This document shows, in pieces, positions 1 through 6,358 of a DNA stretch of 16,588 nucleotides. Origin of the DNA: a virus (Duplodnaviria > Heunggongvirae > Uroviricota > Caudoviricetes). The notes below the pieces were generated by a model, which did no database searches, was not told the origin of the DNA, and saw nothing but the letters and a program-made list of their open reading frames with translations. The DNA is taken from the IMG/VR virus record IMGVR_UViG_2529293142_000008. One strand, 5' to 3'. Position numbers and translations under genes: made by a program. Each line of letters begins with the position of its first letter. The first letter of the stretch is position 1.

Positions 1-248
1 GTATGGCCATCGATGGTCTGAAAGAAGTACAGGAAGCGGTGATGCTGATAGAAGCCGGACTGAGCACCTACGAGAAAGAGTGCGCGAAACGCGGTGACGA
101 CTATCAGGAAATTTTTGCCCAGCAGGTCCGTGAAACGATGGAGCGCCGCGCGGCTGGTCTTAAACCGCCCGCCTGGGCGGCTGCGGCATTTGAATCCGGG
201 CTGCGACAATCAACAGAGGAGGAGAAGAGTGACAGCAGAGCTGCGTAA
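1..248 (+). CDS. B: portal protein gpB, C-terminal fragment (5' end outside window)
   Basis: ORF enters from the window start in the frame of ORF 3..248 and stops at 246-248. It sits immediately upstream of C and overlaps it by 20 nt, as B/C do in lambda. Confidence 0.8.
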   Translation, partial: MAIDGLKEVQEAVMLIEAGLSTYEKECAKRGDDYQEIFAQQVRETMERRAAGLKPPAWAAAAFESGLRQSTEEEKSDSRAA

Positions 249-1548
249 TCTCCCGCATATTGCCAGCATGGCCTTTAATGAGCCGCTGATGCTTGAACCC
301 GCCTATGCGCGGGTTTTCTTTTGTGCGCTTGCAGGCCAGCTTGGGATCAGCCGCCTGACGGATGCGGTGTCCGGTGACAGCCTGACTGCCGGAGAGGCAC
401 CCGCGACGCTGGCGTTATCCGTTGATGATGACGGACCACGACAGGCCCGCAGTTATCAGGTCATGAACGGCATCGCCGTGCTGCCGGTGTCCGGCACGCT
501 GGTCAGCCGGACGCGGGCGCTGCAGCCGTATTCGGGGATGACCGGTTACAACGGCATTATCGCCCGTCTGCAACAGGCTGCCAGCGATCCGATGGTGGAC
601 GGCATTCTGCTCGATATGGACACGCCCGGCGGGATGGTGGCGGGGGCATTTGACTGCGCTGACATCATCGCCCGTGTGCGTGACATAAAACCGGTATGGG
701 CGCTTGCCAACGACATGAACTGCAGTGCAGGTCAGCTGCTTGCCAGTGCCGCCTCCCGGCGTCTGGTCACGCAGACCGCCCGGACAGGCTCCATCGGCGT
801 CATGATGGCTCACAGTAATTACGGTGCTGCGCTGGAGAAACAGGGTGTGGAAATCACGCTGATTTACAGCGGCAGCCATAAGGTGGATGGCAACCCCTAC
901 AGCCATCTTCCGGATGACGTCCGGGAGACACTGCAGTCCCGGATGGACGCAACCCGCCAGATGTTTGCGCAGAAGGTGTCGGCATATACCGGCCTGTCCG
1001 TGCAGGCTGTGCTGGATACCGAGGCTGCAGTGTACAGCGGTCAGGAGGCCATTGATGCCGGACTGGCTGATGAACTTGTTAACAGCACCGATGCGATCAC
1101 CGTCATGCGTGATGCACTGGATGCACGTAAATCCCGTCTCTCAGGAGGGCGAATGACCAAAGAGACTCAATCAACAACTGTTTCAGCCACTGCTTCGCAG
1201 GCTGACGTTACTGACATGATGCCCGCGACGGAGGGCGAAAACGCCAGCGCGGCGCAGCCGGACGTGAACGCGCAGATCACCGCAGCGGTTGCGGCAGAAA
1301 ACAGCCGCATTATGGGGATCCTCAACTGTGAGGAGGCTCACGGACGCGAAGAACAGGCACGCGTGCTGGCAGAAACCCCCGGTATGACCGTGGAAACGGC
1401 CCGCCGCATTCTGGCCGCAGCACCACAGAGTGCACAGGCGCGCAGTGATACTGCGCTGGATCGTCTGATGCAGGGTGCACCGGCACCGCTGGCTGCAGGT
1501 AACCCGGCATCTGATGCCGTTAACGATTTGCTGAATACACCAGTGTAA
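229..1548 (+). CDS. C: head maturation protease / minor capsid protein C (S49 ClpP/SppA-like family)
   Basis: GTG at 229 preceded by GAGGAGAAG (221-228), in frame with ORF 94..1548. It gives 439 aa, the lambda gpC length. The 94 start of the ORF track is an upstream in-frame Met inside B and is unlikely to be the real start. Confidence 0.88.
   Translation: MTAELRNLPHIASMAFNEPLMLEPAYARVFFCALAGQLGISRLTDAVSGDSLTAGEAPATLALSVDDDGPRQARSYQVMNGIAVLPVSGTLVSRTRALQPYSGMTGYNGIIARLQQAASDPMVDGILLDMDTPGGMVAGAFDCADIIARVRDIKPVWALANDMNCSAGQLLASAASRRLVTQTARTGSIGVMMAHSNYGAALEKQGVEITLIYSGSHKVDGNPYSHLPDDVRETLQSRMDATRQMFAQKVSAYTGLSVQAVLDTEAAVYSGQEAIDAGLADELVNSTDAITVMRDALDARKSRLSGGRMTKETQSTTVSATASQADVTDMMPATEGENASAAQPDVNAQITAAVAAENSRIMGILNCEEAHGREEQARVLAETPGMTVETARRILAAAPQSAQARSDTALDRLMQGAPAPLAAGNPASDAVNDLLNTPV
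943..1548 (+). CDS. nu3: capsid scaffolding protein Nu3, nested in-frame in the 3' third of C
   Basis: Internal in-frame ATG at 943 shares the C stop at 1548 and gives 201 aa, the lambda Nu3 length. Nested C/Nu3 organisation is known for lambda. No clear ribosome binding site seen, so the start is by analogy. Confidence 0.65.
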   Translation: MDATRQMFAQKVSAYTGLSVQAVLDTEAAVYSGQEAIDAGLADELVNSTDAITVMRDALDARKSRLSGGRMTKETQSTTVSATASQADVTDMMPATEGENASAAQPDVNAQITAAVAAENSRIMGILNCEEAHGREEQARVLAETPGMTVETARRILAAAPQSAQARSDTALDRLMQGAPAPLAAGNPASDAVNDLLNTPV

Positions 1549-1557
1549 GGGATGTTT

Positions 1558-1908
1558 ATGACGAGCAAAGAAACCTTTACCCATTACCAGCCGCTGGGCA
1601 ACAGTGACCCGGCTCATACCGCAACCGCGCCCGGCGGATTGAGTGCGAAAGCGCCTGCAATGACCCCGCTGATGCTGGACACCTCCACCCGTAAGCTGGT
1701 TGCGTGGGATGGCACCACCGACGGTGCTGCCGTTGGCATTCTTGCGGTTGCTGCTGACCAGACCAGCACCACGCTGACGTTCTACAAGTCCGGCACGTTC
1801 CGTTATGAGGATGTGCTCTGGCCGGAGGCTGCCAGCGATGAGACGAAAAACGGACCGCGTTTGCCGGAACGGCAATCAGCATCGTTTAACCTTACCCTTC
1901 ATCACTAA
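1558..1908 (+). CDS. D: head decoration protein D, C-terminus altered by an apparent 1-nt deletion in an A-run
   Basis: ATG 1558 ([12 protein letters not shown]...). After the A5 run at 1846-1850 the +1 frame encodes [13 protein letters not shown] then TAA at 1887-1889, which would give the canonical 110-aa gpD. The observed frame instead reads [19 protein letters not shown] and stops at 1906-1908. Confidence 0.8.
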
Positions 1909-1910
1909 AG

Positions 1911-1931
1911 GCCGCCTGTGCGGCTTTTTTT
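1911..1931 (+). terminator. hairpin GCCGC-CTGT-GCGGC followed by T7, between D and E
   Basis: Read directly from the sequence. It lies inside the operon, so it is more likely an attenuator or mRNA-stability element than a full terminator. Confidence 0.4.
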
Positions 1932-1944
1932 ACGGGATTTTTTT

Positions 1945-2969
1945 ATGTCGATGTACACAACCGCCCAGCTGCTGGCGGCAAATGAGCAGAAATTTAAGTT
2001 TGATCCGCTGTTTCTGCGTCTCTTTTTCCGTGAGAGCTATCCCTTCACTACGGAGAAAGTCTATCTCTCACAAATTCCGGGACTGGTAAACATGGCGCTG
2101 TACGTTTCGCCGATTGTTTCCGGTGAGGTTATCCGCTCCCGTGGCGGCTCCACCTCTGAATTTACGCCGGGATATGTCAAACCCAAGCATGAAGTGAATC
2201 CGCAGATGACCCTGCGTCGCCTGCCGGATGAAGATCCACAGAATCTGGCGGACCCGGCTTACCGCCGCCGTCGCATCATCCTGCAGAACATGCGAGACGA
2301 AGAGCTGGCCATTGCTCAGGTCGAAGAGATGCAGGCCGTTTCTGCCGTGCTTAAGGGCAAATATACCATGACCGGTGAAGCCTTCGATCCGGTTGAAGTG
2401 GATATGGGCCGCAGTGCGGCGAATAACATCACGCAGTCCGGCGGCACGCAGTGGAGCCAGCGTGACAAGTCCACGTATGACCCGACCGACGATATCGAAG
2501 CCTACGCGCTGAACGCCAGCGGTGTGGTGAATATCATCGTGTTTGATCCGAAAGGCTGGGCGCTGTTCCGTTCCTTCAAAGCCGTCAGGGATAAGCTGGA
2601 TACCCGTCGCGGCTCTCATTCCGAGCTGGAGACAGCGGTAAAAGCCTGGGCAAAGCGGTGTCCTATAAGGGAATGTATGGCGATGTGGCCATCGTCGTGT
2701 ATTCCGGACAGTACGTGGAAAACGACGTCAAAAAGAACTTCCTTCCGGACAACACGATGGTGCTGGGGAACACTCAGGCACGCGGTCTGCGCACCTATGG
2801 CTGCATTCAGGATGCGGACGCACAGCGCGAAGGTATTAACGCCTCTGCCCGCTACCCGAAAAACTGGGTGACCACCGGCGATCCGGCGCGTGAGTTCACC
2901 ATGATTCAGTCAGCACCGCTGATGCTGCTGGCTGACCCTGATGCATTCGTGTCTGTACAACTGGCGTAA
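1945..2969 (+). pseudogene. E: major capsid protein E, frame interrupted by a 1-nt deletion near 2644-2645
   Basis: ATG 1945 (MSMYTTAQLLAANEQKFKFDPLF...). The N-terminal ORF runs to 2871 with an aberrant tail. The E C-terminus (SYKGMYGDVAIVVYSGQYVEN...FVSVQLA) is in the +1 frame as ORF 2658..2969. The span is 1025 nt against 1026 nt for 341 aa plus stop. Confidence 0.85.
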
Positions 2970-2971
2970 TC

Positions 2972-2998
2972 ATGGCCCTTCGGGGCCATTTTCTCTCT
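2972..2998 (+). terminator. hairpin ATGGCCC-TTCG-GGGCCAT (UUCG tetraloop) followed by TTTCTCTCT, just after the E stop
   Basis: Read directly. 7-bp GC-rich stem with a partial U-tract; candidate attenuator between E and FI. Confidence 0.35.
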
Positions 2999-3010
2999 GT
3001 GGAGGAGTCC

Positions 3011-3409
3011 ATGACGAAAGATGAACTGATTGCCCGTCTTCAGGTGCTGGGTGAGCAACTGAACCGTGATGTCAGCCTGACGGGGACGAAAGAAGAACTG
3101 GCACTCCGTGTGGCAGAGCTGGAAGAGGAGCTTGATGACACGGATGACGCTGCCGGTCAGGACACATCTCTCAGCCCGGAAAATGTGCTGACCGGGCATG
3201 AAAATGAGGTGGTATCAGCGCAGCCGGATACCGTGATTCATGATACGGCTGAACTGGTCACGGTAGTGGCACTGGTGACGCTGCATACCGATGCACTTCA
3301 CGCCACGCGGGATGAACCTGTGGCATTTGTGCTGCCGGGAACGGCGTTCCGTGTCTCTGCCGGTGTGGCAGCCGAAATGACAGAGCGTGGCCTGGCCAGA
3401 ATGCAATAA
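3011..3409 (+). CDS. FI: DNA packaging / head assembly protein FI
   Basis: ATG 3011 preceded by GGAGGAG. Gives 132 aa (MTKDELIARLQVLGEQLNRDVSLTGTKEELALRVAEL...). Acidic N-terminal half and position match lambda FI. Confidence 0.9.
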   Translation: MTKDELIARLQVLGEQLNRDVSLTGTKEELALRVAELEEELDDTDDAAGQDTSLSPENVLTGHENEVVSAQPDTVIHDTAELVTVVALVTLHTDALHATRDEPVAFVLPGTAFRVSAGVAAEMTERGLARMQ

Positions 3410-3420
3410 CGGGAGGCGCT

Positions 3421-3795
3421 GTGGCTGATTTCGATAACCTGTTCGATGCTGCCATTGCCTGCGCCGATGAAACGATACGCGGGTACATGGGAACGTCAGC
3501 CACCATGACATCCGGTGAGCAGTCCGGTGCGGTGATACGTGGTGTTTTTGATGACCCTGAGAATATCAGCTATGCCGGACAGGGCGTGCGCGTTGAAGGC
3601 TCCAGCCCGTCCCTGTTTGTCCGGACTGATGATGTGCGGCAGCTGCGGCGCGGCGACACGCTGACCATCGGTGAGGAAAACTTCTGGATAGACCGGATTT
3701 CGCCGGATGATGGCGGAAGTTGTCATCTCTGGCTTGGCGGGGGGGGACCGCCTGCCGTTAACCGTCGTCGCTTGAAAGGGGGGGTATGGCCATAA
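3421..3795 (+). CDS. FII: head-tail connector protein FII, apparent stop-codon loss extending it 7 codons into Z
   Basis: GTG 3421 preceded by GGGAGG (3411-3416). The first 117 codons end in ...PPAVNRRR at 3771, the canonical gpFII length. Codon 118 is TTG (3772-3774) where a stop is expected, and the ORF reads LKGGVWP to TAA at 3793-3795. Confidence 0.8.
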   Translation: MADFDNLFDAAIACADETIRGYMGTSATMTSGEQSGAVIRGVFDDPENISYAGQGVRVEGSSPSLFVRTDDVRQLRRGDTLTIGEENFWIDRISPDDGGSCHLWLGGGGPPAVNRRRLKGGVWP

Positions 3796-4364
3796 AAGGT
3801 CTTGAGCAGGCCGTTGAAAACCTCAGCCGTATCAGCAAAACGGCGGTGCCCGGTGCCGCCGCAATGGCCATTAACCGCGTTGCTTCATCCGCGATATCGC
3901 AGTCGGCGTCACAGGTTGCCCGTGAGACAAAGGTACGCCGGAAACTGGTAAAGGAAAGGGCCAGGCTGAAAAGGGCCACGGTCAAAAATCCGCAGGCCAG
4001 AATCAAGGTTAACCGGGGGGATTTGCCCGTAATCAAGCTGGGGAATGCGCGGGTTGTCCTGTCCCGACGCAGGCGTCGTAACAAGGGGCAGCGTTCATCC
4101 CTGAAAGGTGGCGGCAGCGTGCTTGTGGTGGGAAACCGTCGTATTCCCGGCGCGTTTATTCAGCAACTGAAAAATGGCCGGTGGCATGTCATGCAGCGTG
4201 TGGCCGGGAAAAACCGTTACCCCATTGATGTGGTGAAAATCCCGATGGCGGTGCCGCTGACCACGGCGTTTAAACAGAATATTGAACGGATACGGCGTGA
4301 ACGTTTGCCGAAAGAGCTGGGCTATGCGCTGCAGCATCAACTGAGAATGGTAATAAAGCGATGA
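3786..4364 (+). CDS. Z: tail assembly / tail completion protein Z
   Basis: ATG 3786 after a G-rich Shine-Dalgarno. Gives 192 aa, the lambda gpZ length, in the expected position. Confidence 0.9.
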   Translation: MAIKGLEQAVENLSRISKTAVPGAAAMAINRVASSAISQSASQVARETKVRRKLVKERARLKRATVKNPQARIKVNRGDLPVIKLGNARVVLSRRRRRNKGQRSSLKGGGSVLVVGNRRIPGAFIQQLKNGRWHVMQRVAGKNRYPIDVVKIPMAVPLTTAFKQNIERIRRERLPKELGYALQHQLRMVIKR

Positions 4365-4757
4365 AACATACTGAACTCCGTAGCAGCCGTACTGGATGCA
4401 CTGGAGAAGCATGACACCGGGGCGACGCTTTTTGATGGTCGCCCCGCTGTTTTTGATGAGGAAGATTTTCCGGCAGTTGCCGTTTATCTCACCGGCGCTG
4501 AATACACGGGCGAAGAGCTGGACAGCGATACCTGGCAGGCGGAGCTGCATATCGAAGTTTTCCTGCCTGCTCAGGTGCCGGATTCAGAGCTGGATGCGTG
4601 GATGGAGTCCCGGATTTATCCGGTGATGAGCGATATCCCGGCACTGTCAGAGTTGATCACCAGTATGGTGGCCAGTGGCTATGACTACCGACGCGACGAT
4701 GATGCGGGCCTGTGGAGTTCAGCCGATCTGACTTATGTCATTACCTATGAAATGTGA
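4361..4757 (+). pseudogene. U: tail terminator protein U, frame interrupted by a 1-nt insertion near 4382
   Basis: ATG 4361 (MKHTELR) runs into TGA at 4412-4414 after 17 codons. The rest of U (...[59 protein letters not shown]) is in the next frame and ends at 4757. The span is 397 nt against 396 nt for 131 aa plus stop. Confidence 0.85.
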
Positions 4758-4764
4758 GGACGCT

Positions 4765-5505
4765 ATGCCTGTACCAAATCCTGTAATGCCGGTGAAAGGT
4801 GCCGGGACCACCCTGTGGGTTTATAAGGGGAGCGGTGACCCTTATGCGAACCCGCTTTCAGACGTTGACTGGTCGCGTCTGGCAAAAGTTAAAGATCTGA
4901 CGCCCGGCGAACTGACCGCAGAGTCCTATGACGACAGCTATCTCGATGATGAAGATGCGGACTGGACTGCGACCGGGCAGGGGCAGAAATCAGCCGGAGA
5001 TACCAGCTTCACGCTGGCGTGGATGCCCGGAGAGCAGGGGCAGCAGGCGCTGCTGGCGTGGTTTAATGAAGGTGATACCCGTGCCTATAAAATCCGCTTC
5101 CCGAACGGCACGGTCGATGTGTTCCGTGGCTGGGTCAGCAGTATCGGTAAAGCGGTGACGGCGAAGGAAGTGATCACCCGCACGGTGAAGGTCACCAATG
5201 TGGGACGCCCGTCGATGGCAGAAGATCGCAGCACGGTCACAGCGGCAACCGGCATGACCGTGACGCCTGCCAGCACCTCGGTGGTGAAAGGGCAGAGCAC
5301 CACGCTGACCGTGGCATTCCAGCCGGAAGGCGCAACCGACAAGAGCTTCCGTGCGGTGTCTGCGGATAAAACAAAAGCCACCGTGTCGGTCAGTGGTATG
5401 ACCATCACCGTGAAAGGTGTTGCTGCAGGCAAGGTCAACATTCCGGTCGTATCCGGTAATGGTGAACTTGCTGCGGTTGCAGAAATCACTGTCACCGACA
5501 GTTAA
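4765..5505 (+). CDS. V: major tail tube protein V with C-terminal Ig-like domain
   Basis: ATG 4765 preceded by GTGAGGA. Gives 246 aa ([22 protein letters not shown]...), intact. The C-terminal Thr/Val-rich beta-rich segment fits the known Ig-like domain of gpV. Confidence 0.92.
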
Positions 5506-5520
5506 TCCGGAGAGTCAGCG

Positions 5521-5943
5521 ATGTTCCTGAAAACCGAATCATTTGAACATAACGGCGTGACCGTCACGCTTTCTGAACTTTCAGCCCTGCAGCGTATTGA
5601 GCATCTCGCCCTGATGAAACGGCAGGCAGAACAGGCGGAGTCAGACAGCAACCGGAAGTTTACAGTGGAAGACGCCATCAGAACCGGTGCTTTTGTGGTG
5701 GCGATGTCCCTGTGGCATAACCATCCGCAGAAGACAAAGCAGCCTTCCATGAATGAAGCCGTTAAACAGATTGAGCAGGAAGTGCTTACCACCTGGCCCA
5801 CAGAGGCAATTTCTCATGCTGAAAACGTGGTGTACCGGCTGTCCGGTATGTATGAGTTTGTGGTGAATGATGCCCCTGAACAGGCAGAGGACGCCGGGCC
5901 TGCAGAGCCTGTTTCTGCGGGAAAGTGTTCGACGGTGAGCTGA
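5521..5943 (+). CDS. G: tail assembly chaperone G
   Basis: ATG 5521, 140 aa, ends in ...SAGKCSTVS. The slippery heptamer lies 6 codons before its stop. Confidence 0.9.
   Translation: MFLKTESFEHNGVTVTLSELSALQRIEHLALMKRQAEQAESDSNRKFTVEDAIRTGAFVVAMSLWHNHPQKTKQPSMNEAVKQIEQEVLTTWPTEAISHAENVVYRLSGMYEFVVNDAPEQAEDAGPAEPVSAGKCSTVS
5919..5925 (+). other. programmed -1 ribosomal frameshift slippery heptamer GGGAAAG (G to G-T)
   Basis: Heptamer G GGA AAG read directly in the G frame near the 3' end of G. It is the known lambda G-T slip site. Confidence 0.8.
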
Positions 5944-6358
5944 GTTTTGCCCTGAAACTGGCGCGCGAGATGGGGCGACCCGACTGGCGCGCCATGCTTG
6001 CCGGGATGTCATCCACGGAGTATGCCGACTGGCACCGCTTTTACAGTACCCATTATTTCATGATGTTCTGCTGGATATGCACTTTTCCGGGCTGACGTAC
6101 ACCGTGCTCAGCCTGTTTTTCAGCGATCCGGATATACATCCGCTGGATTTCAGTCTGCTGAACCGGCGTGAGGCTGACGAAGAGCCTGAAGATGATGTGC
6201 TGATGCAGAAAGCGGCAGGGCTTGCCGGAGGCGTCCGCTTTGGCCCGGACGGGAATGAAGTTATCCCCGCTTCCCCGGATGTGGCGGACATGACGGAGGA
6301 TGACGTAATGCTGATGACAGTATCAGAAGGGATCGCAGGAGGAGTCCGGTATGGCTGA
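5919..6358 (+). pseudogene. T: tail assembly chaperone T (G-T frameshift extension), interrupted by a 1-nt deletion in a T-run near 6056-6058
   Basis: The -1 frame from the slip site reads VFDGELSFALKLAREMGRPDWRAMLAGMSSTEYADWHRFYSTHY and then hits TGA at 6093-6095. The rest of T (HFSGLTYTVLSLFFSDPD...IAGGVRYG) is in another frame (ORF 6077..6358), overlapping the H start as expected. Confidence 0.75.

Follow-up and report, generated by a model that had tools for sequence, protein, structure and literature searches.

Loss of the FII stop codon at the FII-Z junction of a lambda-type head and tail gene block, with one-base indels in neighbouring morphogenesis genes

The best described counterpart of the gene considered here is FII of phage lambda (J02459, 7612-7965), whose product, the head-tail joining protein gpFII, is represented by the structures 1K0H and 8K37. 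In the virion, the C-terminal loop of gpFII (residues 108-117) touches the O-loop of gpU electrostatically (PMC10721106). The typical arrangement in the lambda family is an FII gene of 117 codons with its stop codon located 10-11 nt upstream of the Z start codon, and in all seven of the phage relatives that we aligned, lambda included, the FII-Z junction reads CGC TGA AAGGGGGATGT ATG. The locus described below departs from this arrangement, as its FII gene has TTG in place of the stop and runs into Z.

The sequence analysed, referred to as the window, is a 16,588-nt stretch of a Caudoviricetes record in IMG/VR (IMGVR_UViG_2529293142_000008). It contains a lambda-type head and tail block consisting of the end of B, C/Nu3, D, E, FI, FII, Z, U, V, G-T, H, M, L, K, I, J, lom and the start of stf; the features given below all lie on the plus strand. 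The window is colinear with lambda h434 imm21 at 96.7% identity, and the order C-D-E-FI-FII-Z-U-V-G-T-H is shared with that phage as well as with ten other loci, all of them colinear. Full-length genes in the window include C, H (853 aa), M, L, K, I, J (1137 aa) and lom. Within J, a patch at 12054-12087 (codons about 247-258) differs densely from all eight aligned relatives and includes a compensated pair of 1-nt gaps; with the 1137-aa ORF still open, this patch looks like a small recombinant or diversified tail-tip segment.

FII of the window occupies 3421-3795, starts with GTG at 3421 and comprises 124 codons instead of 117. Its product matches the Pfam family PF05354 (Phage_attach) at 70 bits against a cut-off of 26, its residues 1-117 are colinear with residues 1-117 of 1K0H (E=1.8e-72), and the gene lies between FI and Z as it does in lambda. 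Codon 117 is CGC (Arg, 3769-3771), followed by TTG at 3772-3774, where the relatives carry TGA, and by six further read-through codons at 3775-3792 (AAA GGG GGG GTA TGG CCA, encoding KGGVWP), which cross the Z ribosome-binding region and the Z start. The extended frame closes at 3793-3795 with a TAA that is made of Z codons 2-4 (GCC ATA AAA) read in the FII frame. Z itself (tail completion protein, 3786-4364, ATG at 3786) is intact with 192 aa and matches PF06763 at 273 bits; only its first 10 nt are overlapped by the extended FII. The reading frame thus agrees with the initial annotation, which had described 117 codons, TTG, the tail LKGGVWP and the TAA, together with an overlap of the Z start and its G-rich Shine-Dalgarno sequence, and the alignment of the junction to lambda and related phages that it had proposed returned TGA in every phage relative. 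The Z ribosome-binding site is annotated at the place homologous to window 3778-3784 in L008, a lambda-type record.

Compared with lambda gpFII, which ends at TGA after R117, the window reads TTG and adds seven more codons. The two proteins also differ by R107G, which is private to the window, and by V109G, which is common to the natural allele described below, both at the beginning of the gpU-contacting C-terminal loop. The spacers differ as well (GGGGGGGT in the window, GGGGGATGT in lambda), whereas in both cases 14 nt separate codon 117 from the Z ATG. The loss of the FII stop is a real difference from the relatives and not a product of chance. Its consequence is largely predetermined: because the next in-frame stop sits in the conserved codons 2-4 of Z (GCC or TCC ATA AAA), any loss of the FII stop yields an ORF of 124 codons.

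The closest relative of the junction is not lambda, but a natural allele with a run of seven G residues, hereafter the G7 allele. A Z protein identical to that of the window is encoded on 24 public contigs, and among ten such contigs in which the junction was read, three carry the G7 allele (...CTTGGGCGGGGGGGACC...CGTCGTCGC TGA AAGGGGGGGT ATG), with a 10-nt spacer and an FII gene of 117 codons. Two of these carriers, L015 (GCA_043607745.1) and L018 (GCA_014888715.1), are NCBI draft genomes and the third, L020, is from an ENA metagenome; the FII protein of the allele (P0121) is present on 11 contigs. The allele was not found in complete E. coli genomes, in IMG/VR or in JGI metagenomes, and is therefore rare. 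Other natural spacer variants are GGGGGGTGT in L021 and GGGGGTGT in L023. With the G7 allele the window shares the G7 Shine-Dalgarno run, CGTCGTCGC and the Z protein, and it differs from it in lacking the TGA stop and the 117-codon FII, and in reading GGCG8 (LGGGG) instead of GGGCG7 (LGRGG). Over 3680-3840 these differences amount to just two events. One is a single extra T (3772 or 3773), which appears as one 1-nt gap in the alignment and turns TGA into TTGA. The other lies at 3736-3746, where the window has GGCGGGGGGGG and the natural allele GGGCGGGGGGG, a shift in the position of C relative to G that is equivalent to the loss of one G followed by the gain of another; this shift replaces R107 by G and is confined to the window, and no copy of an FII protein with this change was found in the protein collection. 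By contrast, the G7 run at 3778-3784, in the Shine-Dalgarno region of Z, is identical in L015, L018 and L020 and belongs to the natural allele, so that it is no anomaly.

The FII-Z junction of the window is thus derived from the G7 allele. The initial annotation had attributed the extension to a small local rearrangement or substitution around the stop and the adjacent G-runs. The change is indeed small and local, but the G-runs are natural and the stop loss itself is one inserted T; the notion that both G-runs were part of the lesion was accordingly dropped once the G7 allele had been found among loci with the identical Z protein. The same annotation had called the FII-Z spacing lambda-like, and the 14 nt are as in lambda, but this is a coincidence, since the allele has 1 nt less than lambda here and the inserted T makes up for it. 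As a separate observation, L022 (the E. coli YDC107 chromosome) and a 76-member protein cluster (P0011) have lost one G from the GGG of CTTGGGCG in FII, which gives a 127-aa frameshift product ending in ...MYGHKRS. Because this loss hits the run in which the window has GG rather than GGG, the FII GGG run is a recurrent hotspot of slippage or error.

FII genes of 124 codons are not confined to the window. The RefSeq protein WP_000752961.1, named 'head-tail joining protein', has 124 aa because its TGA is changed to TGG, and it ends in ...NRRRWKGDVWP. It resides in a prophage remnant of STEC (O26, O103, O111 and others) that lies beside tRNA-Arg and upstream of ompT and that is the closest relative of window 1500-6400 among complete genomes (98.6%). 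As in the window, the gene has 124 codons in the same frame, ends at the same TAA in Z codons 2-4 and overlaps Z by 10 nt; it differs in that a substitution on the lambda-type 11-nt spacer produces the tail WKGDVWP, whereas the window has the extra T and the tail LKGGVWP (TTG AAA GGG GGG). The window junction is four substitutions away from the STEC TGG allele and one insertion away from the G7 allele. The TGG allele is abundant: its 71-nt junction is matched at 99% or more in 198 records among 5,426 complete E. coli genomes, and the protein is encoded on at least 1000 contigs, while none of 86 phage isolate records contains it. The remnant, represented by L024 and by L026 (15586-27106, E. coli O111 RM9322), is interrupted by IS3 and IS1203 elements. 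In RM9322 its integrase is truncated and IS elements lie in FII and H; C has lost its N-terminal part and H its end, and the genes from M to J are missing, so that there are no tail-tip genes. In the window, by contrast, C, H, M, L, K, I, J and lom are all full-length. Since the allele sits in a dead prophage remnant, its abundance reflects clonal inheritance and is no evidence that the extension works. We consequently rejected the STEC 124-aa FII as a sign of a functional extension, as it comes from a truncated, IS-interrupted remnant and is carried by no phage isolate.

A further example is L025 (a Logan assembly, SRR16828820; protein P0070), a distant lambdoid whose FII is 62% identical and also has 124 codons. 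Its stop position is occupied by CAG, and the frame closes at the TAA within Z codons 2-4 (ATG TCC ATA AAA). It differs from the window in belonging to another lineage, in its tail QGGMLCP and in being a single contig; judged by the gene calls, the head and tail module around it seems intact. Counting the additional T of the window, the FII stop has been lost at least three times, by TGG in STEC and by CAG in L025 besides, and this always leads to the same TAA in Z. The 124-codon FII is already known in RefSeq, and the feature as such is ordinary. The initial annotation had allowed that homologous FII genes with the same 124-codon ORF would speak against a lesion; in kind they exist, as both WP_000752961.1 and the L025 gene end at the same TAA, but neither has the window sequence.

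The window's own version was sought in several collections. Its junction has no copy among 4,601 homologous places in 5,426 complete E. coli genomes; the nearest of these places reaches 95.7% identity over 161 nt. It is also absent from 91 phage records. When IMG/VR viral contigs, GTDB species-representative genomes and JGI metagenomes were scanned for the junction as an exact pattern, neither the form with the extra T nor the one lacking it was present. A collection of 15 billion proteins contains no copy of the 124-aa window FII, and the best matches in the protein collections have 117 aa or are products of frameshifts or truncations. Exact-protein look-ups for H, J, L, M and the truncated E of the window likewise returned none on record, and the window as a whole is absent from the phage, plasmid and complete E. 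coli collections. Two unrelated observations were made among the FII homologues. Firstly, a 169-aa lambda-type homologue (P0001) is labelled 'Bacillus thuringiensis Sbt003' by both NCBI and UniRef, probably as a result of contamination or a mislabelled record. Secondly, in L011 (GCA_044268625.1) the region directly upstream of FI-FII-Z (1-8242) encodes a D5_N/DUF5906 primase, SSB, a second Phage_cap_E and HDPD pair, AlpA, and GmrSD and HEPN genes in place of the usual Nu1-A-W-B-C-D-E genes; this block resembles a satellite or defence island that borders on a truncated lambdoid prophage.

The interpretation of the FII stop loss is changed by private indels in three neighbouring genes, E, U and T, all of which are known from lambda genetics to be essential. 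Window-specific indels were identified by global alignment with three full-length relatives and the frames were checked by translation. In E (major capsid protein, 1945-2969), one A is missing between 2644 and 2645, where AAAGACCTGG of the relatives has become AAAGCCTGG (AAAGACC to AAAGCC); this shifts the frame after residue 233 and leaves the remaining 108 codons intact in the other frame. The deletion lies directly before a CCTGG site, the Dcm methylation motif. In U (tail terminator, 4361-4757), an extra A at 4382 (CGTAGCAG versus CGTGCAG in the relatives) shifts the frame after residue 7. In the T part of the G-T tail assembly chaperone (5925-6358), a run of four T residues in the relatives is reduced to three at 6056-6058, with a frameshift after about residue 45, while G is identical to that of the STEC relative. 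All three changes are private: no exact match was found in 2,034 (E), 4,077 (U) and 4,174 (T) homologous places of complete E. coli genomes, and the best matches in each case differ only by the respective gap.

A fourth frameshift behaves differently. In the ORF of the head decoration gene D (1558-1908), a run of five A residues at 1846-1850 replaces the run of six present in most relatives, shifting the frame after about residue 97 to give a 116-aa product. The exact 116-aa protein is encoded on at least 24 public contigs (NCBI, ENA and Logan) from diverse backgrounds, whose lambdoid modules otherwise look intact and share about 97% identity with the window. The change from A6 to A5 was therefore rejected as a private sign of error, and the D frameshift is a recurrent or recombining natural allele. 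In D, E, U and T alike, the frame downstream of the frameshift is still open and matches the relatives. A homopolymer context fits the shift in the FII G-run, the change of T to TT and that of T4 to T3, whereas the indels of E (GAC to GC) and U (TG to TAG) lie outside homopolymers, that of U also without a Dcm-like context.

The balance between indels and substitutions in this part of the window is unusual. Against about 16 relatives, the segment 1500-6400 has only two private substitutions, one synonymous (3561) and one M to I (6136), versus four to five private indels (one each in E, U and T and one or two in FII). With indels taken to account for 10% of neutral events, the probability of such an excess is about 1e-3 to 2e-4. 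The crowding of five indel events into 3.4 kb of the 16.6-kb window has a probability of about 0.0075, a post hoc figure. Between 6400 and 11300 the window has 27 private substitutions, most of them synonymous (19, versus seven non-synonymous and one non-coding), and no private frameshift was found in the window outside 1500-6400. The segment is also multi-copy among lambdoid prophages, occurring at a median of two and up to nine places per genome.

Taking these observations together, we consider it the most plausible reading, with a probability of roughly 0.6, that the extra T and the C/G shift in FII as well as the private indels of E, U and T are uncorrected insertion and deletion errors of assembly in this stretch. 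In the recorded sequence, one T more than in the G7 allele turns TGA into TTGA at the end of FII, and translation continues in frame through the Z ribosome-binding site to the first stop, the TAA of Z codons 2-4, adding LKGGVWP and creating the 10-nt overlap. A plausible source of the errors would be unpolished long reads in a segment that is repeated among the lambdoid prophages of one genome; in hybrid assemblies, short-read polishing is generally known to fail in such repeats. On this reading, the real phage would encode a normal 117-codon FII with TGA. Several points favour assembly error. Three further private indels break otherwise conserved structural genes. The ratio of four to five private indels to two substitutions is very unlike neutral decay, and the indels are clustered; the frames downstream of the frameshifts are untouched; elsewhere the window has the look of a phage module that evolves normally and under selection; apart from two local events, the window equals the natural G7 allele over 3680-3840; and the junction is missing from every collection searched. 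Furthermore, the loss and gain of a G within a few nucleotides of one G-run look more like one base-calling shift than like two mutations. Against assembly error, the indels of E and U, being outside homopolymers, are less typical of platform errors, and the D frameshift, which had seemed private and yet is real elsewhere, illustrates that apparent privacy can mislead. In addition, real prophages do gain frameshifts, with RefSeq marking frameshifted FI, FII and H in relatives, and the remainder of the window is clean, which speaks against poor quality of the assembly as a whole.

The main rival is a less probable reading, in which the indels would be genuine mutations of a very recently inactivated, defective prophage. 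They would have accumulated in E, FII, U and T after selection for particle production had ceased, and the FII stop loss would be one neutral lesion among them, without function. Lambdoid morphogenesis genes that are frameshifted or interrupted are common in complete genomes, the other FII stop loss, from TGA to TGG, has become fixed in a defective remnant present in 198 of them, and both the D allele that is real elsewhere and the two indels outside homopolymers would be accommodated as well. However, neutral decay should yield far more substitutions than indels, which is the reverse of what 1500-6400 presents. Nonsense substitutions, IS elements and deletions are likewise lacking, the genes C, H, M, L, K, I, J and lom are intact, and selection is still visible outside 1500-6400 in private changes that are mainly synonymous. 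Finally, a loss and a gain of G that compensate each other in FII would mean that the function of FII was still selected for in a phage without E, U and T.

It is very improbable that the 124-codon FII is a genuine functional variant, in which the FII-U interface would accept the tail or profit from it, or the overlap would tighten the translational coupling of Z to FII. If it were real and tolerated, the tail or the FII/Z overlap might represent a recurrent viable state that alters head-tail joining or Z coupling. Consistent with such a variant, an FII of 124 codons with the same TAA has arisen at least three times by different mutations, in L025 within a module whose gene calls look intact, and Z, its G7 ribosome-binding site and the spacing are unaltered by the insertion. 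However, the TGG allele occurs in a truncated remnant riddled with IS elements and in none of the 86 phage isolates, and L025 and P0045 are singletons. The tail LKGGVWP and R107G would both lie at the FII-U interface, where a hydrophobic addition following RRR is more likely to interfere than to help, and with E, U and T frameshifted in the window no particle could form anyway. Mismatch-repair deficiency, which favours indels in long homopolymers and gives many transitions, was rejected as a source of the changes, given the two indels outside runs and the mere two private substitutions in 1500-6400. Programmed recoding, whether by stop-codon readthrough or by frameshifting, can practically be dismissed: nothing beyond the C-terminal extension itself speaks for it, the relatives simply terminate at TGA, and with the sense codon TTG at 3772-3774 there is no stop to read through, which excludes programmed readthrough.

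If the indels are errors, as we favour, then FII, E, U and T of this record are miscalled as extended or frameshifted, and the phage wrongly seems to be defective. Conversely, if they are real, the FII stop loss marks a dead prophage in which FII is made with seven extra residues and ribosomes stop 7 nt past the Z ATG, not 10-11 nt before it. Judging from the unchanged Shine-Dalgarno run and spacing, Z expression would in that case probably persist by coupling or reinitiation. A 124-codon FII is by itself no oddity, as every loss of the FII stop gives that ORF and one such allele is widespread in RefSeq, and the biological weight of the FII stop loss is small.
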